This document shows, piece after piece, positions 8,774 to 20,709 of a stretch of DNA of 25,104 nt. A program made the position numbers and the translations under genes. A model generated the notes under the pieces. The model did not search any database. It saw only the letters and a list, made by a program, of their open reading frames with translations, and was not told where the DNA came from. The stretch lies in NCBI GenBank assembly GCA_964544375.1, contig CAZJCO010000001.1:1-25104 (forward strand). The letters are read 5' to 3'. Numbering within the stretch: position 1 is the stretch's first letter; the number at the start of each line of letters is the position of its first letter. This DNA is from an uncultured Myxococcales bacterium (lineage in GTDB: Bacteria; Desulfobacterota; Binatia; UBA1149; SPBQ01).

Positions 8774-9934
8774 TCAGCTTTTCGTCGCATCCCTCAGAAT
8801 TGCGGCTACCTCGGCGCGCGTGAATTCGGGTGGCGGCAGTTGGCCCTGGCTGAGCATTTTGCGAACGCGGGTGCCGCTTAGGAAAACGTGCGCATCCTTG
8901 TCGTGCGGGCAGGTCTTGGTTGACGCCATGCCTTGGCAGAGCTTGCAGTAGAAGGTGTGCTCGTAGTTGATGCAGGTGATTCCGATCTCTCCCGGCGCGA
9001 ACTCCTTGAAGATCTCCTGCGCGTCGTAAGTGCCGTAGTAATTGCCTACTCCAGCGTGGTCGCGGCCGACGATGAAATGGGTGCAGCCGTAGTTCTGACG
9101 CATGAGCGCGTGGAGGATTGCTTCTCGAGGACCGGCGTAATGCATGTTCGCCGGCAGCACCGAGAGCAGGACGCGGTCGGCCGGATAGTAGTTCTCGAGT
9201 AGCACCTGATAGCAGCGCATGCGGACATCGGCCGGGATGTCGTCGCTCTTGGTCTCGCCTACCAGCGGGTGCAGTAGCAGACCGTCGACCATCTCGAGAG
9301 CGCACTTCTGAAGATACTCGTGCGCGCGATGAACCGGATTGCGCGTTTGGAAGGCGACGATCGTACGCCATCCGCGCTCGCGAAACGCCGCGCGCGTCTG
9401 TGCTGGTTCGAGTCGGTGCTCGGCAAACGGCAAGCCCGACGGATGCCTCAGCATGGTGATCCGTCCGGCCAGGTAGATATCGCCCTGGGCGTAGACCGCG
9501 GCGACTCCGGGATGGGCCTCATCCGTCGTACGGTAGACCTTTTCGGCTTCGACGCGTTTGTCCGGCTGGTAGCGGCTGCAGAGGTGAAGGATTGCAAGCA
9601 CGTCGCCGTTTTCGTCGGCGAGGGCGACGTCGTCTCCGTCCGTCAGGCGTTCGGCTTCCTCGCAGGTGACGGTGAGGGTGATCGGAATCGGCCACACCAG
9701 ACCGTTGGCCAAGCGCATGTCCTGCACGACCGACTCGTAGTCCTCACGACCCATGAAGCCGTCGAGCGGACTGAATCCGCCGATTGCCAGCATTTCCAGA
9801 TTGGCTCGTTTGCGCGCATCCAATACCAGGCGGGGTAGGTCGGCACTCTTGTCGTCCCAGGCTGCTCGCTCTTCGTCATCGGCCATCCGATGGACCAAAC
9901 TGCCACCATGTGGCGCGATTGCGTCTTCAGGCAT
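8774..9934 (-). CDS. sat: Sulfate adenylyltransferase (ATP sulfurylase, Sat type)
   Basis: [40 protein letters not shown] motifs. 386 aa, with no APS-kinase fusion. Confidence 0.97.
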
Positions 9935-10039
9935 TTCCTTTTCCTTTCCTCCGTGAATAGTGCGGGTCCTGGCGGGTGCTCAGGGGTCGCCCGCCGCAAC
10001 TCTATCCGAATCCGCTTGTGCGCCCAAATCGGGCCGGTC

Positions 10040-11473
10040 TCAGTTGGGGTAGACGCCAAGGAGCGGCCAGTACAGCAACACGGTTGCGTTGAATGCCAAC
10101 CAGGCGAGAACCCCCATCAGCATGCCGGGAACGATGATGTCGCGCAGGCGCAGATAGCCCGAGGAATAGGCAATTGCGTTGGCCGGCGTTCCAATCGGAA
10201 AAGCGAACGCGAGACCGGCGGGGATTGCGACGGCCGGCGCTACGACCGAGAGTTGAATGCCGACTTCTCGCGCGAGACCAATTCCGACTGGCATCATCAG
10301 TGCCACCACCGCCGAATTGCTGATTGCCTCGGTCAGGATCCAGGAGGTAAGGGACAACGCCGCGCAGACCGTGGGCGGCGACACGGCCCAGAGGCCGATG
10401 GTCCGGTCTGCGAGCCATCCTGCCGCGCCGGAGACGTCGAGCGCCTTGCCCAAGCAGATGGCGCCTCCGTACATCAAGATGATTCCCCAGTTGACGTATT
10501 CCTCTACATCCCGCCATGCTACCAACCGCAGCGCGAATAGAACTACGACGGCGAGAATCGCAACGTTGGCCAGCCCTAGCCGATGGCCGAAAAACACCCA
10601 GGTGGCGACTGTACAGAGCATGATCAGGCCGATCGCCTTTTCTTCAATCGTAGCTCGACCGAGGGCGGCAACGCGTTGACTGAGTACTTCTTCGGCCTGG
10701 CTGACGCTGTCGATGTCGATCGGAAACCAGTGCGTGATGACGCCGTAGCCGACCAACAACATCGCGCCGACGACCGGCAGGGCGTGCAAGCTCCAAGAGA
10801 GAAAAGTAAAGGAAGACTCTCCCGTCACCTGCTCGAGGATGGCCAATGCGAGGGGCGCCCTTCCTCCGCCCAGCAGGGTCGCCACGCCGCCGATCGTCGA
10901 GCCCCAGGCCATGGCGACGAAGAGGGCCTTGCCGTAGGAGCTCCGCAGCTGCCGCAGGCCGAGTACGGTGGCAATCTCGGCGACGATCGGGAAGTTCATT
11001 GCTGCCACGGCGTGCTCTGACATCCAGAACGAAAGGAACGCATTGAGGAGGAAGATCGCCACCAGTAGGCGGCGCGGCGAGTGGCCGAACCTTCTCAAAA
11101 CCAGCAGGCTGAGGCGGGTAGACAGACCCGACTTCATCAGGCAAGCCGCCAGGATGAACGCTCCGAGAATGAAAAAGACGGCCGAATTGCCGAACAGGGC
11201 GTAGGCTTCTTCAGAGCCGAGAACTCCGGTCAACGGCAGTAGGGCAATTGCCAGGAGGCTCGTAATCATCAGCGGGAGGACGCTGAGGGCCCAGAAGACC
11301 ACGCAAAGCGCGAACACGGCGAGCGCTTGCTGCCCTTGGGCGGACAGTCCGGCCGGAGTGTCCGCGCTAGCGATCCACCAGTAGATTGCGACGCCCGCCA
11401 GTAGACGTAACAGACGGTTCGAGCGAGAAAGCAGCACCAGCCACAAAGGGCGCGTATCGACGACGACGTCCAC
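10040..11473 (-). CDS. DASS/SLC13 family anion:Na+ symporter, probably for sulfate or another sulfur oxyanion
   Basis: Highly hydrophobic, with STIGGVATLLGG, ISNSA and PIGTPANAIAY motifs. Start moved to GTG 11473, just after the radical SAM stop. Substrate inferred from adjacency to sat. Confidence 0.88.
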   Translation of the reverse strand: MDVVVDTRPLWLVLLSRSNRLLRLLAGVAIYWWIASADTPAGLSAQGQQALAVFALCVVFWALSVLPLMITSLLAIALLPLTGVLGSEEAYALFGNSAVFFILGAFILAACLMKSGLSTRLSLLVLRRFGHSPRRLLVAIFLLNAFLSFWMSEHAVAAMNFPIVAEIATVLGLRQLRSSYGKALFVAMAWGSTIGGVATLLGGGRAPLALAILEQVTGESSFTFLSWSLHALPVVGAMLLVGYGVITHWFPIDIDSVSQAEEVLSQRVAALGRATIEEKAIGLIMLCTVATWVFFGHRLGLANVAILAVVVLFALRLVAWRDVEEYVNWGIILMYGGAICLGKALDVSGAAGWLADRTIGLWAVSPPTVCAALSLTSWILTEAISNSAVVALMMPVGIGLAREVGIQLSVVAPAVAIPAGLAFAFPIGTPANAIAYSSGYLRLRDIIVPGMLMGVLAWLAFNATVLLYWPLLGVYPN

Positions 11474-11477
11474 TTGC

Positions 11478-12704
11478 CTACAGTCTCGATGCGTTGAAGG
11501 AGTCGCTGACGCGCTTGACGCGAAGGCGCCGTCGGAGTTTGGACAGACCGCGTACCGCTCGGCTGCCAATCCGCGAACGGTAGAAACTGCTGACGGCGAC
11601 ATCGATGCGGGCTTCGTCTCCTGCAAAAAAGCGAGCCTCGATCGGGGTGATTGCGTAACCGAGATCCCGCATGTGCTGAACGTTGATGCGCGCCGCACGA
11701 ACCCGCTCGTAAAGATGCGCATAGAGTGGGGTAACCTGCTCGGGATCCGGCGGCGCATGATTGCGGAGCGCGGTTTCTTCGAGAGGGCGGAACAACGACA
11801 GCACGGGGACTACGCCGGAAGAGGTAAGTTCGTCGATCCCGGCGAGGGTGGATTCGACTGGTTCCAGCCCGACGATGAGATCGCTCCAGACGGTGCCGCT
11901 CGGAAAGATGCGAGCGGCGTATTCGAGTGCACACAAGTAGCGTTCGCGACCGATGAGCTGGTTGCGACCGCGACAGATCGTGGCGAGAATTTCGGGATCG
12001 AAAATTTGCAGACTGTAGCTCAGGGCGTCGACACCGGATGCATAGCAGCGGTCGATCCAGCGGTCGTCGGCGGGCGGATGCACTTGAACGGCGACGAGGG
12101 TGTCGAAATGGCGTTTGACCGCTCGTACGTAGGGTTCGAGGAACGCAAAACCACCGTCCTCCGCTTCGAAGTGCCCGGTATTGAAATACACGAACTCGGC
12201 GGCGCCCTCGTCAAACGCCGCGCGTACGACTTCCAGGACCTCCTCGATGGGCCGCGGGGCGCGTACGACGCCGTCGGTCTGCGCGAGTGTGCAGAACTGG
12301 CAACCAAGGCCACGTGCGCTGAAGCCGCATGCCGAAGCGGGATCGATCGATAGGTAACCCGCGTGGACGGTGGCGACCTGCCACATCGGCGTACCCTCGG
12401 TGGTAGTGGCGCAATAGAAGCGGGGTGGGGCGATCAGGCTTACGGGCACTTGGGTGCCGTCTTCGCTGTTGCAAAGGAAAAAAGCGTCGTTTTCGCAGTC
12501 CAGCACGTACGGTGAGTCGGCGGCCATCGGGGTTGCGATCGGACACTCGGCGATAATGTCTTGAGGCAGAATGACTTCGAGACCGCGGCTAGCGAAATCG
12601 CGCGCAGCGGAAGCCGGGTTCAGTGTGGCCAGATCCGCCAGCGCGGGCGACAGTCGGATTCCCTTGACGGCGACATCGATCTTCAGCTCAACGGGGTTAC
12701 GCAA
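11478..12704 (-). CDS. Radical SAM protein with atypical CX8CX2C motif (MSMEG_0568/NitD-like)
   Basis: CGFSARGLGCQFC at 12329-12291; TIM-barrel motifs GVDALSYSLQIFD, SDLIVGLE and VVPVLSLFRP. Start set at TTG 12704, with GAGG upstream and overlapping the preceding stop. Confidence 0.86.
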   Translation of the reverse strand: MRNPVELKIDVAVKGIRLSPALADLATLNPASAARDFASRGLEVILPQDIIAECPIATPMAADSPYVLDCENDAFFLCNSEDGTQVPVSLIAPPRFYCATTTEGTPMWQVATVHAGYLSIDPASACGFSARGLGCQFCTLAQTDGVVRAPRPIEEVLEVVRAAFDEGAAEFVYFNTGHFEAEDGGFAFLEPYVRAVKRHFDTLVAVQVHPPADDRWIDRCYASGVDALSYSLQIFDPEILATICRGRNQLIGRERYLCALEYAARIFPSGTVWSDLIVGLEPVESTLAGIDELTSSGVVPVLSLFRPLEETALRNHAPPDPEQVTPLYAHLYERVRAARINVQHMRDLGYAITPIEARFFAGDEARIDVAVSSFYRSRIGSRAVRGLSKLRRRLRVKRVSDSFNASRL

Positions 12705-13206
12705 GGGGCGCCTCGTCAGCCGGCTCTGTCGGCCGTCGTTGCCATCCGAGCAGGACGCCAATCGCCCGGGCTGCGGCATCGCAGGCAGCGATTGCGTGGA
12801 GCAAGGTCGAAACCGGGGCGCCCGCGGCCGCGCCGTCGTCGCTCTGCGAGCGATGGCACTCGGAGCGGCCCGACGACGGTGCCTTGCTTGCCGTCACGCC
12901 GCCGAGCAGCTTGCAGCCGACGATGCGGTACCAGACGATCGGAGTTCTGTCGTCGGGCCCCCGAGGGCTCAAGCTCTCTCCGTCGGGTTCGCGATCGGCG
13001 AGGATCAGGCAGTCCGCCCGGCGATCCGGTTCCCGCGTGACCTGGACGCCGGTCGCGCGAAGATATCGCTCGAGTATGTCTAGAGCTTCGGTGTGTCCCT
13101 GTAGCTCAACGATGCTGGCGAGCAGTCGCTCCTGGCCGCTGCCGCCGACTTCGGGAATGACGATCTGACGAGCGTAGCGCTCGATATCGCGTTCGGATAG
13201 AGGCAC
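12697..13206 (-). CDS. Degenerate ThiF/MoeB (E1-like) protein: keeps the N-terminal RYxRQ but lacks the ATP-binding motifs
   Basis: ERYARQIVIPEVGGSGQERLLAS matches the MoeB N-terminus. GxGxxG is replaced by GHTEAL, and SNLxRQ and the CxxC pairs are missing. The C-terminal helix (AIAACDAAARAIGVLLG) is kept. Confidence 0.75.
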   Translation of the reverse strand: MPLSERDIERYARQIVIPEVGGSGQERLLASIVELQGHTEALDILERYLRATGVQVTREPDRRADCLILADREPDGESLSPRGPDDRTPIVWYRIVGCKLLGGVTASKAPSSGRSECHRSQSDDGAAAGAPVSTLLHAIAACDAAARAIGVLLGWQRRPTEPADEAPLA

Positions 13207-13213
13207 GAGAACA

Positions 13214-13453
13214 TCACTCGATGACGTTCTTTTCGATCGGTTCGACTTTCACGCCCTGCTCGGCGATCCACGCAACGGCTTTCTCGATCTCGTCTTCGTC
13301 GCCTTCGAGTTCGAGGGCGACGATTCCGATGTGGTCCGAAATCGAGGCGCCGCGAATGTTCGTCACGACCCGGAACTTGTGCCCGACGTGGTAGATGATC
13401 GGTTCCTTGATCTGATCTTCGCTATAGGTGAGGTAAAATCGATAAATCGCCAT
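13214..13453 (-). CDS. Stand-alone NIL domain protein
   Basis: 79 aa: MAIYRFYLTY...KEPIIYHVGHKFRVVTNIRGASI...ALELEGDEDEIEKAVAWIAEQGVKVE. GAGGAG RBS before ATG 13453. Confidence 0.87.
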   Translation of the reverse strand: MAIYRFYLTYSEDQIKEPIIYHVGHKFRVVTNIRGASISDHIGIVALELEGDEDEIEKAVAWIAEQGVKVEPIEKNVIE

Positions 13454-13454
13454 G

Positions 13455-14423
13455 TCATGCTCCTCGAAACTGGGGTCGCGGCAGATCCTTCCAGCCAGCC
13501 CAAAGATTGGTCGACAGGTAGCGGTCGCCGAAATCACAGAAGATCGTGACGACGCAACCGCGTTCTAGTGTCGATGCCACTTCGAGAGCGCCCACCATGG
13601 CGGCGCCGCTCGACTGCCCAACGAGAATGCCGTCTTCGCGGGCCAGCCGGTAGACCATGTCGTAGGCGGCTTCGGTCGCCACCCCGATTTTGTGGTCGAG
13701 TTCCTCTTCGTGATAGATGCCGGGGACGATCGAGCTCTCCATATGTTTGAGGCCCTCGATGCCGTGGAATGCGTCGTCTGGTTCGACCGCCACGACCTGG
13801 ACGTGCCGGCTCTGTGATTTCAAGAAACGTCCGGTGCCCATCACCGTGCCGCCGGTTCCGATGCTGGCGACGAAGTGCGTTACGGCCCCCTTGGTCTGCT
13901 GCCAAATCTCCGGTCCGGTAGTCAGAAAGTGCGCCTCCGGATTGGCCTCGTTGAAGTACTGATCGGGCTTGAAGTAGCTATCGCGGTCGGCCTCGTAAAT
14001 CTCGCGGCAGCGCAGAAGCGCACCGTCGGATCCCTCGAGGCCGCTGGAATAGATTGCCTCGGCGCCGTAGGCGGCCAGGATGCGTTTGCGTTCGGTCGAG
14101 ACGTTGTCCGGCATGACCAGGCGAACGGGATACCCGAAGGCCGCGCCGATCATCGCCAGAGCAATGCCCGTGTTGCCCGACGTCGAGTCGAGAATCGTCT
14201 TTCCCGGCGTCAACTCTCCGGACTCGATGCCGCGACGGATCATGTTCCACGCGGGACGGTCCTTGACCGAACCGGCGGGATTGAAGCCTTCGAGCTTGGC
14301 GAACACCTCAACGTCAGGAGCAATCTCACGAGAGACGTTGCGGATGCGTACCAGCGGTGTCTTGCCGACGATGTCGAGAACACGCGGCACGCGAGTGCCG
14401 GCGATGGGGCTGGTCTCGCTCAT
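13455..14423 (-). CDS. cysM: PLP-dependent cysteine synthase family protein (CysM-like, probably carrier-thiocarboxylate dependent)
   Basis: VGKTPLV, KLEGFNPAGSVKDR (PLP lysine), STSGNTG, SIGTGGT and GQSSGA motifs. Follows the sulfur carrier gene. Confidence 0.9.
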   Translation of the reverse strand: MSETSPIAGTRVPRVLDIVGKTPLVRIRNVSREIAPDVEVFAKLEGFNPAGSVKDRPAWNMIRRGIESGELTPGKTILDSTSGNTGIALAMIGAAFGYPVRLVMPDNVSTERKRILAAYGAEAIYSSGLEGSDGALLRCREIYEADRDSYFKPDQYFNEANPEAHFLTTGPEIWQQTKGAVTHFVASIGTGGTVMGTGRFLKSQSRHVQVVAVEPDDAFHGIEGLKHMESSIVPGIYHEEELDHKIGVATEAAYDMVYRLAREDGILVGQSSGAAMVGALEVASTLERGCVVTIFCDFGDRYLSTNLWAGWKDLPRPQFRGA

Positions 14424-14829: not shown

Positions 14830-16092
14830 TCATGCCGACGCGGCTTTCGCCGCCGCTTGATCGCTAAGTTTCCGATAGAGTTCGTCGAAATCATCGAGTT
14901 TTGCGGCAATTCGTCGGGGCTCGGCGACCGAGTCCATCACTGCCTCGAGGGTCTTGTATCCGTTCCCCGTAACACTGATTACGATCGATTCGTCCGCTGG
15001 AATCCTCCCCTGTTCGATCAGTTTCTTAGCGACCGCCACGGTGGTACCGCCCGCCGGCTCCGTGAAGATTCCTTCGGTTTCGGCAAGCAGCTTGATCCCG
15101 GCGACGATCTCTTCGTCGGTAGCCGCTTCTCCCCAGCCGCCACTGTTGCGGACCGCCTTGAGCACGTAGTAACCGTCGGCCGGGTTGCCGATGGCGATCG
15201 ACTTCGCGATCGTGTTCGGCTTTACCGGTTCGATCAAGTCGCTCTCGCGATGCAACGCGTGAACGACCGGTGCGCATCCGGCCGCCTGAGCCGTGTAGAT
15301 TTTCCACGGGCTGTCCTTTACCAGACCGACCGCGACCAGTTCTTCGAAGGCCTTGGCGACCTTGGGCAGGATCGTGCCGCCGGCGGTAGGAACCACGATG
15401 TGACGTGGAAGCTTCCACCCCAACTGCTCGGCGACTTCGAAGCCGTAGGTCTTGGCGCCTTCGGTGTAGAACGGCCGCAGATTGATGTTGGCGAATGCCC
15501 ACTGGTACTTGTCCGCGATCTCCGTGCACAGGCGGTTGACGTCGTCGTAATTGCCCGAGATCGCGACGGTCGTTGGCTGATAGACGGCCGAACCGATGAC
15601 TTTACCGCGCTCGAGATTGTCCGGAATGAAAATGAAACAGCGAAGACCAGCGCGCGCCGCATGGGCGGACACCGAGTTGGCGAGATTGCCCGTCGAGGCG
15701 CAGGAAACCGTGTCGAAACCGAACTCGATTGCTTTGGTAATTGCTACCGATACGACACGATCCTTGTAAGAAAAGGTCGGGTGGTTGACCGAATCGTCCT
15801 TGACGTAGAGCTCCTTGACCCCCAGCGCTTCTGCCAGCCGGTCCGCACGAACCAGCGGGGTGCAGCCGGAATGCAGACCGATCTTCGGCTCGCTCTCAAT
15901 CGGGAGCAACTCCCGATAACGCCATAGATTGCGCGCGCGTCCTTCGATTTTTCGCCTTGTAACGGTCGACGCGATGGCTTCGTAGTCGTAACAGACCTCC
16001 AGCGGTCCGAAGCAGAATTCGCAGACGTGATGAGGGCCCAGTTCGTAAGCCTCACCGCACTCGCGGCACTTCAATCCGGTGATCAGTGACAT
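14830..16092 (-). CDS. thrC: Threonine synthase-like PLP enzyme (fold type II) with N-terminal Zn ribbon
   Basis: CRECG...CEFC, LWRYRELLP, PTFSYKDR (PLP lysine), CASTGNLA, EGAKT, TGNGYK. Family is secure; the actual reaction is uncertain (see findings). Confidence 0.9.
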   Translation of the reverse strand: MSLITGLKCRECGEAYELGPHHVCEFCFGPLEVCYDYEAIASTVTRRKIEGRARNLWRYRELLPIESEPKIGLHSGCTPLVRADRLAEALGVKELYVKDDSVNHPTFSYKDRVVSVAITKAIEFGFDTVSCASTGNLANSVSAHAARAGLRCFIFIPDNLERGKVIGSAVYQPTTVAISGNYDDVNRLCTEIADKYQWAFANINLRPFYTEGAKTYGFEVAEQLGWKLPRHIVVPTAGGTILPKVAKAFEELVAVGLVKDSPWKIYTAQAAGCAPVVHALHRESDLIEPVKPNTIAKSIAIGNPADGYYVLKAVRNSGGWGEAATDEEIVAGIKLLAETEGIFTEPAGGTTVAVAKKLIEQGRIPADESIVISVTGNGYKTLEAVMDSVAEPRRIAAKLDDFDELYRKLSDQAAAKAASA

Positions 16093-16873: not shown

Positions 16874-16990
16874 GCCTCATCTCTCGCCCTTTCGTCTCGG
16901 GCAGTAGGATTTAGCACCAGCACCCACCTAGGGGCGGGCCGGTTGCTGTGGCTTCGCAGGGCCTATTCCCTCCACCACTCTCAATAAGGC
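16874..16990 (-). ncRNA. SAM-I (S-box) riboswitch aptamer
   Basis: Minus strand GCCUUAUUGAGAGUGGUGGAGGGAAUAGGCCCUGCGAAGCCACAGCAACC...GGUGCUAAAUCC...GAUGAGGC. P1 GCCUUAU/AUGAGGC, P2 GUGGU/GCCAC with kink-turn GA pairs, P3 GCAACC/GGUGC, P4 GCCC/GGGC. The pseudoknot shows a compensatory UAG/CUA in place of the usual UGG/CCA. Confidence 0.93.
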
Positions 16991-17055: not shown

Positions 17056-17835
17056 ATGACCGCCGGACCCTGCGAAGAGAGTTCCGTGGCCGGCCGGCAC
17101 ATACCCTTGCGGGGCGCATTCAACTTCCGCGATCTCGGCGGTTTCCGCGGCGACAGCGGCCGTCTGGTGACCGACGGTCGTGCTTACCGGGCCGACGCAC
17201 TGCACCGGCTCGAAGCCGAAGATGTCCGCTTGCTCGAGACCCTCTCTATCGAATGCTTCTTTGACCTGCGTAGTGAGGCGGAGTTGGCCAAGGACGGGAT
17301 CGGGGCCTTCGAGGCCGCCAACGGCCGGCACTGCCATGTTCCTCTGGTGAGCGTGAGCCTGAGCCCCTTCGATCCCTCGATCAATTGGCGCGAGATGAAT
17401 CTTCTCGATCGCTATCTCGAGATGCTCAAGGACGGCGGAGCCGCGATCCGCGCCGTCCTCGACGGTTTCCTGGAGGTCGATCGCGGTGCCGTCGTTTTTC
17501 ACTGTAGCGGCGGAAAAGACCGAACGGGTGTCGTCGCTGCCGTGTTGCTGCGGACGCTCGGCGTATCCGACGAGGACATCGTCGAAGACTACGCGAGCTC
17601 GGAAGGTTATCTGCGTTCGATCATTCTGCGTTATCGAGCCGAACTCGAGGCCATTGGGCTCGATCGGGATGCGGTCGAATACCTGACCTCTAGCAAGCCG
17701 GAACGCATGCGCCGCATGCTCAGCGAACTCGACCGAGTTTGGGGATCGACGGAAGGCTACCTCGACACGATCGGCTTCGGTGCCGACCGGCGGCAGCGCT
17801 TGCGCTCGCGCCTGTTGCTCGCGCCCTCGTCCTGA
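17056..17835 (+). CDS. Tyrosine-protein phosphatase family protein (Y_phosphatase3 / PtpB-like)
   Basis: NFRDLGG, FFDLRSEAE, P-loop FHCSGGKDRTG (CX5R), IVEDYASS. Confidence 0.9.
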   Translation: MTAGPCEESSVAGRHIPLRGAFNFRDLGGFRGDSGRLVTDGRAYRADALHRLEAEDVRLLETLSIECFFDLRSEAELAKDGIGAFEAANGRHCHVPLVSVSLSPFDPSINWREMNLLDRYLEMLKDGGAAIRAVLDGFLEVDRGAVVFHCSGGKDRTGVVAAVLLRTLGVSDEDIVEDYASSEGYLRSIILRYRAELEAIGLDRDAVEYLTSSKPERMRRMLSELDRVWGSTEGYLDTIGFGADRRQRLRSRLLLAPSS

Positions 17836-17836
17836 C

Positions 17837-18499
17837 TCAGCCAGAAAGGGCGGTAAGCCGTTCTTTCGCCGAGCGCGCGGCCTCAGTTTCCGGAAAGTTG
17901 TCGAGGATAAACTGGTAGCGTGCGCGGGCTGCCTGCGGGCGTCGCGAACGGGCGTAGTAATCTCCCACGAACAGTTCGTGGTCGGCCAGATGTTCTTCGA
18001 CCTGGGCCAAGCGAAACGCCGCTAGGCGCCCGTAGAGCGAGTCTTCGTAGCGCGCCATCACGCGCTCGAGCTGGCGCCGCGCGTTCTCGGCGGCCGACTG
18101 GTCGCGGTCGCGAGCGCGCATTTGGTCCAGGTAGCACATACCGATGGTGTACTCGACGAAGGCGAGATGCGTGCTGGTCGGGTGCAGACGTTCGAAGTCT
18201 GTAAATGCCGCGATCGCCTTGTCGTATTTGCCGTTTAGATAGTAGGCCTGGGCCACTCGCAATCGAGCGACTTCGGCAAGGTCGGAAAACGGATACTGTT
18301 CGAGGAGTTCGTCGTAAAGACGGCTTGCGGTGAAGAAATTGCGTGCTTCGAATTCGGCATTGGCCTCGGCGAAAAGACTCTTCTCTCCGCGAGGGGGGGG
18401 TGCCGAGCAAGAGGTGACCAGAAGCGCTAGCGCGAGCAGGATCAGCGCCAGAGACGCGCAGCGCCGGCATCCGAGCATCGGTCTGAGCGGTGGGAACAT
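17837..18499 (-). CDS. bamD: Outer membrane protein assembly factor BamD
   Basis: Lipobox LVTSC, TPR repeats (LLEQYPFS, FERLHPTS, DRDQS, ELFVGDYY). The start could instead be the second ATG (MLGCRR). Confidence 0.9.
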   Translation of the reverse strand: MFPPLRPMLGCRRCASLALILLALALLVTSCSAPPPRGEKSLFAEANAEFEARNFFTASRLYDELLEQYPFSDLAEVARLRVAQAYYLNGKYDKAIAAFTDFERLHPTSTHLAFVEYTIGMCYLDQMRARDRDQSAAENARRQLERVMARYEDSLYGRLAAFRLAQVEEHLADHELFVGDYYARSRRPQAARARYQFILDNFPETEAARSAKERLTALSG

Positions 18500-18607: not shown

Positions 18608-19564
18608 ATGACAGCGTCTCGCCTTCATCTCGTCGTCGGCAAGGGCGGCGTCGGCAAATCGACGGTTACCGCGGCGATGGCCCTGGCGCTGGCGCAGCAG
18701 GGGCGACGCGTGTTGGCACTCGAACTCGATGGTCCCGGCGGCTTGGCACGCGCTTTCGGGGTCACGCCCGATCGACCGGCCAGTTTTCTCCGTGTGCGCC
18801 ACCGGCTCTCGGTCGGCTTCGTCGACGGCCAATCCGCCCTGGCCGAGTACCTGGGGCTCGTCATTCCCATCCGCCGTCTGCTCGATACCGTCTTCGGTAG
18901 TCGAATCTACAAGAACTTTGTCGCTGCCGCACCCGGCCTCAAAGAGCTGATGACGATGGGGAAAGTTTGGTACGAGTTCCAGCGTTGCGGAGACGATGGT
19001 CGCCCGGTCTGGGACGCGATTGTCGTCGACGCGGGAGCGTCGGGGCACAGTTTGCAATATCTGCAGATGCCGGCGGCGGCTGCGAGAACCTTCCGCAGCG
19101 GTCTGGTTCACCGCGAATCCCAGCGCGTAGCAGCGCTGCTCGGTGACGCGGCAACGACCCGTGTCCACGTTGTCACTGTGGCCGAGGACATGCCGCTGGC
19201 CGAAGCGCTCCAGATCCTCGCGCGATTGCGCGGAGAGCTGCGGCTTCCGGTCGGACGACTGTTCGTGAATCGCTGGCGCGCCGAGGCCCCGGAGGGCGCT
19301 CGGGCCGTGCTCGAGCGCCTGAGTACGGCGGCGCCCGCGGGCGCGGATGGCGCGTCGCTGACGATTCTCGAAGGCGTTCGGAGCGCGGGCTATCGCTGCG
19401 TGCAATGGGCCGAACTGCAGCGGCGCAGCCTTGATCGCTTCCAGGCACGAATGGGTCTGCAGCCGATTCTGCTGCCGCTGCTTGCGGTCGAAGAGTTCGG
19501 CACGGACGAGGTCGAGAGGTTGGCGAGTTTGGTCGCGCACGGGCCACGAGAGGTCGTCTTGTGA
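18608..19564 (+). CDS. ArsA/Get3 family ATPase, subunit A (Rv3679/BagA-like)
   Basis: VGKGGVGKST deviant Walker A, AAAPGLKEL, VVDAGASGH, VAEDMP, FVNR. Confidence 0.88.
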   Translation: MTASRLHLVVGKGGVGKSTVTAAMALALAQQGRRVLALELDGPGGLARAFGVTPDRPASFLRVRHRLSVGFVDGQSALAEYLGLVIPIRRLLDTVFGSRIYKNFVAAAPGLKELMTMGKVWYEFQRCGDDGRPVWDAIVVDAGASGHSLQYLQMPAAAARTFRSGLVHRESQRVAALLGDAATTRVHVVTVAEDMPLAEALQILARLRGELRLPVGRLFVNRWRAEAPEGARAVLERLSTAAPAGADGASLTILEGVRSAGYRCVQWAELQRRSLDRFQARMGLQPILLPLLAVEEFGTDEVERLASLVAHGPREVVL

Positions 19565-20709
19565 GTCTGGCGCCATTGATCGAAGGTCACCGGGTCCTGG
19601 TTTGCGTCGGCAGCGGAGGGGTCGGCAAGACCACCACGGCTGCCGCTCTGGCGCTGCAGGGGGCACTCATGGGGCGGCGAGCGATGGTGCTCACGATCGA
19701 TCCCGCCAGACGTCTGGCGCAATCGCTCGGCCTAGAGGCGCTGCGCAGTGGTGGGCAGCCGATCGACGAGGAGATCTTCGCCGACGCCGGTTTGCAACCG
19801 CAGGGGAGTCTCTGCGCCGGAATGCTCGAACAGGAGAGCGCCTGGGACCAGTTCATCGCGCGCCATGCCCCCAACGAGGAACTGCGCGAGACCATTCTCA
19901 GCAATGAGTTCTACCGCCATTTGTCGCGCTCGTTTGCGGGCTCGGCGGAATACATGGCGATCGAAGAACTGGGGCGCATCGAGGAAAGCGGCGAATATGA
20001 CCTGATCGTTCTCGATACACCGCCGACCGGGCATGCGCTGGACTTCCTCGAAGCGCCCAAGCGCCTGGACGACTTTCTCGACCGATCTGTGGTCGGTTGG
20101 TTCGTGCGCCCCTATGCTTCGGCCGGCTGGAGCGCGTGGAAGACGGCGAGCCGGAGCGTTCGGTTTCTCATGCAGCGAATCGAGGACGCGACCGGCAGCC
20201 AGTCACTGCGGCAGATCTCGGAGTTCTTCGTCGCGATGGAGAGCCTGTTCGATGGGATCAACGAACGAGGGCGCAAGGTTCGCTCCCTCTTGACGAGCGA
20301 GCGAACCGCGTTTGTGCTGGTCGCAGGTCCGCAAGAGCAGGTCCTCGGAGAGAGCGAGCTGCTGACGAGCAAGATGCGTGAACTCGCGATGCCGTTGAGG
20401 GGTGTGGTGATGAACCGTGTTTATCCGATGCCCGCCGGCGGCGAGTCCGAACCGACGGAGGCCGACGTTCGACGCGCCTTGCGTGCGGCCCATGATGGTG
20501 CGATCGCGTCGGAAATCGAGGACTGGCTCGTCGCCCGCTATCTAGAGGGCTGCACGATCGCGCGCTCGGAGGAGATTCGTCGGGAGTCTTTCGAGGCTGG
20601 GCTTGACGACGACGTGCGTTGCGTCGCGGTTCCGGAGTTCGAAGCAGACGTGCACGACCTCGTTTCGTTGGCCCGGGTGGGCCATGTGCTGGTAACCACG
20701 ACGGACTGA
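19561..20709 (+). CDS. ArsA/Get3 family ATPase, subunit B (Rv3680/BagB-like)
   Basis: VGSGGVGKTT, TIDPARRLA, GSAEYMA, VLDTPPTGHALDFLEAP, VVMNR. GTG overlaps the upstream TGA. Confidence 0.9.
   Translation: MSLAPLIEGHRVLVCVGSGGVGKTTTAAALALQGALMGRRAMVLTIDPARRLAQSLGLEALRSGGQPIDEEIFADAGLQPQGSLCAGMLEQESAWDQFIARHAPNEELRETILSNEFYRHLSRSFAGSAEYMAIEELGRIEESGEYDLIVLDTPPTGHALDFLEAPKRLDDFLDRSVVGWFVRPYASAGWSAWKTASRSVRFLMQRIEDATGSQSLRQISEFFVAMESLFDGINERGRKVRSLLTSERTAFVLVAGPQEQVLGESELLTSKMRELAMPLRGVVMNRVYPMPAGGESEPTEADVRRALRAAHDGAIASEIEDWLVARYLEGCTIARSEEIRRESFEAGLDDDVRCVAVPEFEADVHDLVSLARVGHVLVTTTD

Follow-up and report, generated by a model that had tools for sequence, protein, structure and literature searches.

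In Mycobacterium tuberculosis, the sulfur carrier protein CysO serves the cysteine synthase CysM. In Streptomyces albulus, the threonine synthase (ThrC) homologue MetM works with the sulfur carrier MetO to convert O-phosphohomoserine to homocysteine (Hasebe et al. 2024, AEM 90:e01247-24, as cited in bioRxiv 10.1101/2024.10.14.618325 and PMC12172450). According to appendix 4 of that preprint, a GapMind update, MoeZ activates MetO, Mec is responsible for its maturation, and MetM is frequently misannotated as threonine synthase (bioRxiv 10.1101/2024.10.14.618325). PMC12172450 places S. albulus metM behind an S-adenosylmethionine (SAM) riboswitch and beside metO, and describes homologues as distributed among cyanobacteria. 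It was this riboswitch control that led to the discovery of metM. Protein-thiocarboxylate-dependent homocysteine synthesis is also described for HcyS, HcyF, HcyD and MetY of Wolinella succinogenes (Krishnamoorthy & Begley 2011, PMC3089676, as cited in PMC5764234). Here, we describe a gene annotated as threonine synthase, and the operon that contains it, in a stretch of 25,104 nucleotides (the window) from contig CAZJCO010000001.1 of an uncultured bacterium placed in Binatia (assembly GCA_964544375.1).

Homology and gene context indicate that the product of this gene is very probably not a threonine synthase but a homocysteine synthase of the MetM type, acting on O-phosphohomoserine and a carrier thiocarboxylate. 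The initial annotation had already proposed a gamma-replacement on O-phosphohomoserine by the carrier thiocarboxylate. This proposal is supported by the published MetM/MetO reaction, by the shared gene layout and by the position of the protein outside the ThrC clade. This interpretation is probably right but not new. The value of the window gene as a discovery is modest, since both the family and the reaction it catalyzes have been in print since 2024; it would be a further misannotated member of the family, in a Binatia-like bacterium.

A ThrC fold in a separate clade

The window protein is a fold-type II pyridoxal phosphate (PLP) enzyme of the ThrC fold that carries an extra N-terminal ribbon of four cysteines. 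Its AlphaFold2 (AF2) model has a predicted local distance difference test (pLDDT) value of 83.5, and the nearest solved folds found by Foldseek are ThrCs, with template modeling (TM) scores of 0.83-0.85 normalized to the target. No MetM structure was among the Protein Data Bank (PDB) entries searched by Foldseek. A PTFSYKDR motif and an N-terminal zinc ribbon had been noted from the sequence, and both are present, the motif at residues 105-112 and the ribbon as CxxC pairs at residues 9-12 and 24-27. The motif is followed by VV, where canonical ThrC has GM. Each ribbon cysteine (C9, C12, C24 and C27) is kept in 79-84 of the 84 clade members, and all four are invariant in alignment A1. The ribbon is absent from the solved threonine synthases of ~350 amino acids, which align with the window protein from residue ~56 on. 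Public homologues that are 76-90 % identical come from Candidatus Binatia and 'Deltaproteobacteria' metagenome-assembled genomes (MAGs).

A scan of one genome per species returned at least 597 relatives. The best 80, which are 56-69 % identical to the window protein, were analyzed and span Binatia, Planctomycetota, Acidobacteriota, Nitrospirota, Nitrospinota, Desulfobacterota, Chloroflexota, Cyanobacteria and others. With L001-L003, these best 80 of at least 597 make up the 83 loci considered here, and all of their open reading frames (ORFs) were searched with the window proteins. A neighbor-joining tree was built from 181 sequences, comprising the loci, representatives at 50 % identity and four solved ThrCs. 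In this tree, the solved ThrCs and the second copies found in some of the loci form one clade of their own. A second clade, linked to a sulfur carrier and a riboswitch, includes a gene from Nonomuraea gerenzanensis and a Binatia subclade to which the window protein belongs. Identity to the window protein is 33.6-38.3 % for canonical ThrCs versus 52-83 % for the linked clade, and the solved ThrCs match it with 166-196 bits (Aquifex ThrC, 196). The carrier-linked clade is large, spans phyla and is distinct from the solved threonine synthases.

The two clades differ at 18 signature positions. All are invariant in ThrC (GMTAFLSNRGAATASWSD), and at each of them the carrier-linked clade has another residue with a conservation of at least 90 % (VVLEYNNRYAGKKSDGGT). 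The window protein has the clade state at 18 of 18 positions and the ThrC state at 0 of 18. Among these positions are the two residues after KDR, T88L after ASTGN, the GNAGN loop and the N-S-V-N-P-x-R segment (S155N, N157R and R160Y in Thermus thermophilus numbering). Other ThrC-invariant sites that are replaced include T239/A240, S248/W249 and D323 in the same numbering. Several of the replaced ThrC residues may contact the substrate phosphate, which guides water addition; a search of the literature on the phosphate-binding residues of T. thermophilus ThrC gave no confirmation. A clade-specific insertion of 8 residues lies near residue 282.

Further groups of ThrC-like proteins with a zinc ribbon (P0235, P0252, P0265, P0268 and others) are 35-40 % identical to the window protein and carry neither signature (e.g., ASAPYFGNTGGGDSDGAD); thus, the ribbon alone does not define the clade. 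These groups may have yet other functions. The ribbon is also present in 'thrC' genes from haloarchaeal and Azospirillum plasmids, whose products are ~35-38 % identical to the window protein.

Several relatives encode a canonical ThrC in addition to the ThrC-like protein. In three Nitrospirota loci, the gene for a canonical ThrC of ~365 amino acids directly follows the ThrC-like, carrier and NIL-domain genes, so that one cluster contains both paralogues (L015, 1959-3101; L016, 9853-10947; L021, 2138-3268). The second copy in L016 scores 508 bits to Aquifex ThrC versus 196 bits for the window protein, and second copies also occur in two Nostoc loci. In all, there are six cases in which the ThrC-like gene shares a locus or a genome with a canonical thrC (L015, L016, L021, L073, L075 and Nonomuraea). 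The window itself contains one ThrC-like gene, and no hom or thrB gene was found among its ORFs.

Carrier linkage and SAM control

A SAM-I riboswitch heads the operon and is followed first by a gene for an E1-like adenylyltransferase (E1), then by the ThrC-like gene, which begins before the E1 gene ends, and directly after that by a ThiS/MoaD-family carrier gene (Table 1). This arrangement had been read from the sequence in the initial annotation, and it holds in every part. The ATG of the ThrC-like gene lies within the final E1 codons (...GAAGCATGTCACTGA), giving an overlap of 10 nt, and AAGGAGG stands 7 nt 5' of this start codon. The carrier gene is 56 nt downstream, with AGGAGG ahead of its start.

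A carrier homologue is found downstream on the same strand in 71 of the 83 loci and lies within 400 bp in 64. Of the 12 loci in which no carrier was seen, three end less than 900 bp after the gene and cannot be judged. A covariance model trained on seven Rfam-confirmed SAM riboswitches, which scores the window aptamer at 103.5 bits, showed that 27 of the 83 loci have a SAM-I riboswitch ahead of the gene and in its orientation. It found no SAM riboswitch in the cyanobacterial loci among the 83, in agreement with PMC12172450. The order E1, ThrC-like, carrier, CysM, NIL is retained in Binatia (L002, L003, L006 and L008), where E1 occupies the same place in L002, L003 and L006. Pairs of ThrC-like and carrier genes with no CysM gene nearby occur in cyanobacteria, Actinomycetota and Planctomycetota. 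The carrier-linked clade is genetically tied to a CysO/MetO-type carrier with a terminal GG and, in many lineages, to a SAM riboswitch.

Some members of the clade have no adjacent carrier gene. Four of these, all Acidobacteriota (L019, L034, L047 and L065), have a SAM riboswitch; the others include Aquificaceae L030 and Actinomycetota L048, the latter with an E1 and a NIL gene instead. These six carrier-less members keep 16-18 of the 18 signature residues. They may rely on a carrier gene at a different site in the genome or obtain sulfur from a different donor.

The complete chromosome of N. gerenzanensis provides the link to the actinobacterial genes. A SAM riboswitch (68.7 bits) is followed immediately by a ThrC-like gene, whose product has the same zinc ribbon, and then by a carrier that ends in AVAGG and is 49 % identical to the window carrier. 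This order is the actinobacterial metM-metO layout. The genome also encodes a separate canonical ThrC that is 64.5 % identical to M. tuberculosis ThrC. The plasmid collection held the Nonomuraea copy and no Streptomyces copy, and a search seeded with the Nonomuraea protein returned only Streptosporangiales. Cluster look-ups for 20 representatives named only Micromonosporaceae.

Control of the operon by SAM is probably translational. The E1 start codon (16880..16878) lies inside the 3' strand of riboswitch helix P1 (AGAG-ATG-AGGC), which suggests translational shut-off by SAM, and no convincing terminator follows the riboswitch. Terminator-like sites in the operon occur at chance level (8 found versus 7.3 expected), and a promoter scan of the operon did no better than chance. 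When SAM is plentiful, the riboswitch would close the whole operon, probably by trapping the start codon of the first gene in P1. Shut-off at high SAM fits an enzyme of the methionine pathway, not a threonine synthase.

Candidate functions and the proposed reaction

Several observations weigh against a MetM-type function for the window gene. All named public homologues are labeled threonine synthase, and the window protein scores above the cut-offs of two threonine synthase models, at 284.6 versus 167.1 bits for TIGR00260 and 304.2 versus 303 bits for NF006050. The putative orthology to S. albulus MetM relies on proxies, namely the synteny, shared clade and 52 % identity with the Nonomuraea gene and the published 51.6 % identity of a cyanobacterial clade member to S. 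albulus MetM (PMC12172450). A Microcystis member of the clade, encoded beside a metO-like gene, showed weak threonine synthase activity in vitro (Vmax ~0.018 µmol per mg per min) and threonine deaminase activity as well, and no rise in methionine was seen in vivo (PMC12172450). The window carrier ends in ...AIAGG-RS, two residues past the GG. No Mec/JAMM protease was found among the window ORFs, and the E1, at 265 amino acids, has no rhodanese domain.

One alternative is that the window protein is a MetM-like homocysteine or thiol amino acid synthase that uses sulfide, persulfide or another activated homoserine ester, while the carrier mainly serves CysM. We consider this improbable, though it is the best placed of the alternatives. 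The CysM gene directly follows the carrier gene, and the best solved match of the carrier is M. tuberculosis CysO (3dwg_C, 91 bits). About nine clade members from Acidobacteriota, Aquificaceae and an Actinomycetota MAG have several kb of downstream sequence and no adjacent carrier, four of them with a SAM riboswitch. Also in its favor, sulfate-activation genes share clusters with the ThrC-like gene, and so does a small sulfite-reductase-like gene in L035 and L068. However, the ThrC-like and carrier genes that are paired with no CysM nearby indicate that the carrier tracks the ThrC-like gene and not CysM. In addition, published MetM uses the MetO thiocarboxylate (bioRxiv 10.1101/2024.10.14.618325).

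A second alternative, that the gene encodes a genuine zinc-ribbon threonine synthase that merely sits in an operon with sulfur genes, is very unlikely. The model scores, the ThrC folds nearest to its predicted structure, the catalytic lysine and many shared PLP-site residues (56 positions are invariant in both ThrC and the carrier-linked clade) would fit it, as would the weak activity of the Microcystis protein. TIGR00260 and NF006050, however, do not separate the two clades, so these scores explain the annotation and not the function. No carrier thiocarboxylate was supplied in the Microcystis assay, and a distinct 'ThrC2' is encoded by that organism (PMC12172450). We treat the weak activity as a residual side activity that still leaves some room for the annotated function. 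Against a threonine synthase stand the complete lack of ThrC signature residues, the separate clade and the canonical ThrC that coexists in the locus or genome of relatives. The absence of hom and thrB from the window points the same way, and linkage to a carrier and to a riboswitch that turns expression off with SAM, repeated across phyla, would make no regulatory sense for this enzyme.

The last alternative is another sulfur replacement, such as a cysteate-like reaction of sulfite with O-phosphoserine, or a pathway to a non-proteinogenic thio-amino acid in which the radical-SAM and NIL proteins take part. It draws on the ThrC paralogues that make cysteate in methanogens and on the presence of an uncharacterized radical-SAM protein and a NIL protein in the operon, but it is very unlikely given that the cysteate synthase model TIGR03844 scores 60.5 bits versus a cut-off of 324.9, that close relatives keeping the core genes (e.g., L003) lack the radical-SAM gene and that SAM control points to methionine. 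Cysteate synthase was rejected as a candidate for the window protein on this score.

For the favored function, a carrier-thiocarboxylate-dependent homocysteine synthase, the reaction can be outlined by analogy with MetM/MetO, CysM/CysO and HcyS/MetY. The terminal RS would first be cut from the carrier to expose the GG, which the E1 of the operon would adenylate. Sulfur would then turn the GG terminus into a thiocarboxylate. This sulfur would probably be supplied through the sulfate-assimilation genes at the end of the operon; the ATP sulfurylase and DASS-family symporter there, together with the sulfite-reductase-like gene of two relatives, point to assimilated sulfide. O-phosphohomoserine would bind on PLP and lose its phosphate to form a vinylglycine-type intermediate, as in ThrC. 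The carrier thiocarboxylate would then add at C-gamma, instead of water at C-beta. Homocysteine would be freed either directly or through a carrier-homocysteine adduct that is cut by a Mec/JAMM-type hydrolase encoded elsewhere.

TIGR00260 and NF006050 capture the whole carrier-linked clade. As a result, thousands of genes from Binatia, Planctomycetota, Acidobacteriota, Nitrospirota, Cyanobacteria, Actinomycetota and others are named threonine synthase, and pathway reconstructions would miss a route to methionine. The 18-position signature (VVLEYNNRYAGKKSDGGT versus GMTAFLSNRGAATASWSD), combined with a downstream GG carrier, offers a rule for re-annotation. If the assignment is true, the clade adds a ThrC-fold enzyme to the known examples of sulfur transfer from protein thiocarboxylates.

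The operon and its counterparts

Table 1. Features of the operon and their positions in the window.
Feature	Position	Strand	Evidence
SAM-I riboswitch aptamer	16874..16990	-	Rfam RF00162, 70.9 bits versus gathering score 44.4, E = 5.7e-15
E1-like adenylyltransferase, ThiF/MoeB domain only, 265 aa	16083..16880	-	Pfam ThiF, 199 bits
ThrC-like PLP enzyme, 420 aa, starts with ATG	14830..16092	-	PALP, 225 bits
Four-cysteine ribbon at N terminus of ThrC-like protein (C9, C12, C24, C27)	16012..16068	-	sequence
PLP-lysine motif PTFSYKDR, residues 105-112, Lys110	15757..15780	-	sequence
ThiS/MoaD-family sulfur carrier, CysO/MetO type, 93 aa	14492..14773	-	Pfam ThiS, 62 bits
CysM-type cysteine synthase	13455..14423	-	TIGR01138 cysM, 382 bits; TIGR01136 cysKM, 351.7 versus cut-off 344
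Small NIL-domain protein, 79 aa from ATG 13453	13214..13453	-	Pfam NIL, 54.7 bits
ThiF remnant ORF, 169 aa	12697..13206	-	retains only ~54 N-terminal residues of a ThiF-like protein
Variant radical-SAM protein	11478..12779	-	NF045502, 194.9 bits
DASS-family anion symporter	10040..11758	-	TIGR00785, 252.8 bits; Pfam Na_sulph_symp
ATP sulfurylase, closes the same-strand string	8774..9934	-	Pfam ATP-sulfurylase, 337.5 bits, and PUA_2

The RS that follows the GG of the window carrier would have to be trimmed before activation. The related loci encode 70 complete carriers, of which 41 terminate with GG and 22 extend 1-8 residues further. The presumed activator of the carrier is the E1, whose best solved relatives are MoeB (1jw9) and ThiF (1zfn). 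The CysM protein matches CysM (2v03, 251 bits) and M. tuberculosis CysM (3dwg_A, 208 bits) in the PDB and is possibly a second PLP client of the same carrier. In L007, L009, L012, L035, L058 and L068, other genes separate the ThrC-like gene from the carrier, and no Mec/JAMM gene was found among them. What these six intervals contain is a flagellin-like ORF, unassigned ORFs and two genes for small sulfite-reductase-like proteins. The latter two (NIR_SIR and 4Fe-4S domains; L035, 1751-2794; L068, 6228-7208) lie in loci of the Desulfobacterota type.

The NIL protein is a recurrent companion of the carrier. Its gene follows the carrier or CysM in ~30 loci. In eight loci from several phyla (L020, L023, L029, L032, L035, L040, L060 and L077), a NIL domain is fused in frame right after the carrier GG, as 80-85 extra residues that are clearly homologous to the window NIL protein. 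This NIL part would need to be cleaved to expose the GG. A separate NIL gene stands behind the carrier in ~20 further loci. We found no description of a link between carrier and NIL in the searchable literature. It is conceivable, though rather doubtful, that the operon is a self-contained SAM-controlled module for thiocarboxylate sulfur assimilation, in which one carrier feeds both CysM, for cysteine, and the MetM-type enzyme, for homocysteine, and NIL is an obligatory partner not recognized before. In such a module, NIL would be either a pro-domain that is cleaved off or a sensor of methionine or homocysteine that controls the activation of the carrier.

The genes for the radical-SAM protein, the DASS symporter and the ATP sulfurylase (8774-12779) extend the string in the window and in L002, L023 and L040. 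The radical-SAM protein is found in all three of these loci, and the ATP sulfurylase lies at the equivalent position in each. Since these genes are absent from the close relative L003, they are an optional addition to the core operon that serves the uptake and activation of sulfate. The listed ORF of the DASS symporter runs into the gene upstream of it, so translation probably begins near 11,47x; its Na_sulph_symp domain begins at residue 115 of the listed ORF, and the L002 homologue has 483 amino acids. The ThiF remnant is 48 % identical to the start of a full ThiF of 257 amino acids at the same position in L002. It has no nucleotide-binding glycine motif, and L003 has a similar form of 163 amino acids. 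The remnant may have arisen by decay of a second E1, or it may be a short protein that has taken on another function. The window neighbors of the operon (17056-17835, plus strand; 17837-18499, minus strand; 18608-20709, plus strand) encode a tyrosine-phosphatase-family protein, a BamD/YfiO-like outer-membrane lipoprotein and two ArsA-like ATPases, and the same neighbors are present in L003. These neighbors fit a Gram-negative source of the Binatia type.

Compared with canonical ThrC (Aquifex 2zsj, Bacillus subtilis 6cgq, T. thermophilus 1uim and M. tuberculosis 2d1f), the window protein has the same fold, the S-x-K-D-R motif and the ASTGN loop; its substrate and the first half of its reaction are presumably those of ThrC as well. 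It differs in the ~55-residue N-terminal ribbon, the 8-residue insertion, the 18 replaced residues and its context and regulation. Methanogen cysteate synthase is likewise a ThrC-fold paralogue that performs a sulfur replacement, but it uses O-phosphoserine and sulfite, and its model scores the window protein far below the cut-off given above. The Wolinella system (PMC3089676, as cited in PMC5764234) resembles the window in having residues after the carrier GG that must be trimmed, an E1 in the operon and sulfate-assimilation genes in the cluster. Its enzyme, however, is MetY, a fold-type I O-acetylhomoserine sulfhydrylase that acts on O-acetylhomoserine, whereas the window enzyme has the ThrC fold and is proposed to act on O-phosphohomoserine.

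The CysO/CysM/MoeZ/Mec system of M. tuberculosis also places a CysO-type carrier next to a CysM-type enzyme, with activation of the GG by an E1, and shares with the window the logic of a phospho-ester combined with a protein thiocarboxylate. M. tuberculosis CysM, of the CysK/CysM fold, performs a beta-replacement on O-phosphoserine, whereas the ThrC-fold enzyme of the window would perform a gamma-replacement on O-phosphohomoserine. Unlike the M. tuberculosis system, the window has no Mec gene, and its E1 lacks the rhodanese domain of MoeZ. The closest counterpart is the MetM/MetO pair of S. albulus, with which the window has in common the SAM riboswitch, the ThrC-like gene, the GG carrier and the annotation as threonine synthase. 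The nearest actinobacterial representative obtained, that of Nonomuraea, is ~52 % identical to the window protein. The window carrier ends in GG-RS, and its host is a Gram-negative MAG of the Binatia type, not an actinomycete. S. albulus relies on a MoeZ encoded elsewhere, whereas the window operon encodes its own E1. It is richer than the Streptomyces pair in other ways, adding CysM, the NIL protein, the ThiF remnant, the radical-SAM protein, the DASS symporter and the ATP sulfurylase.

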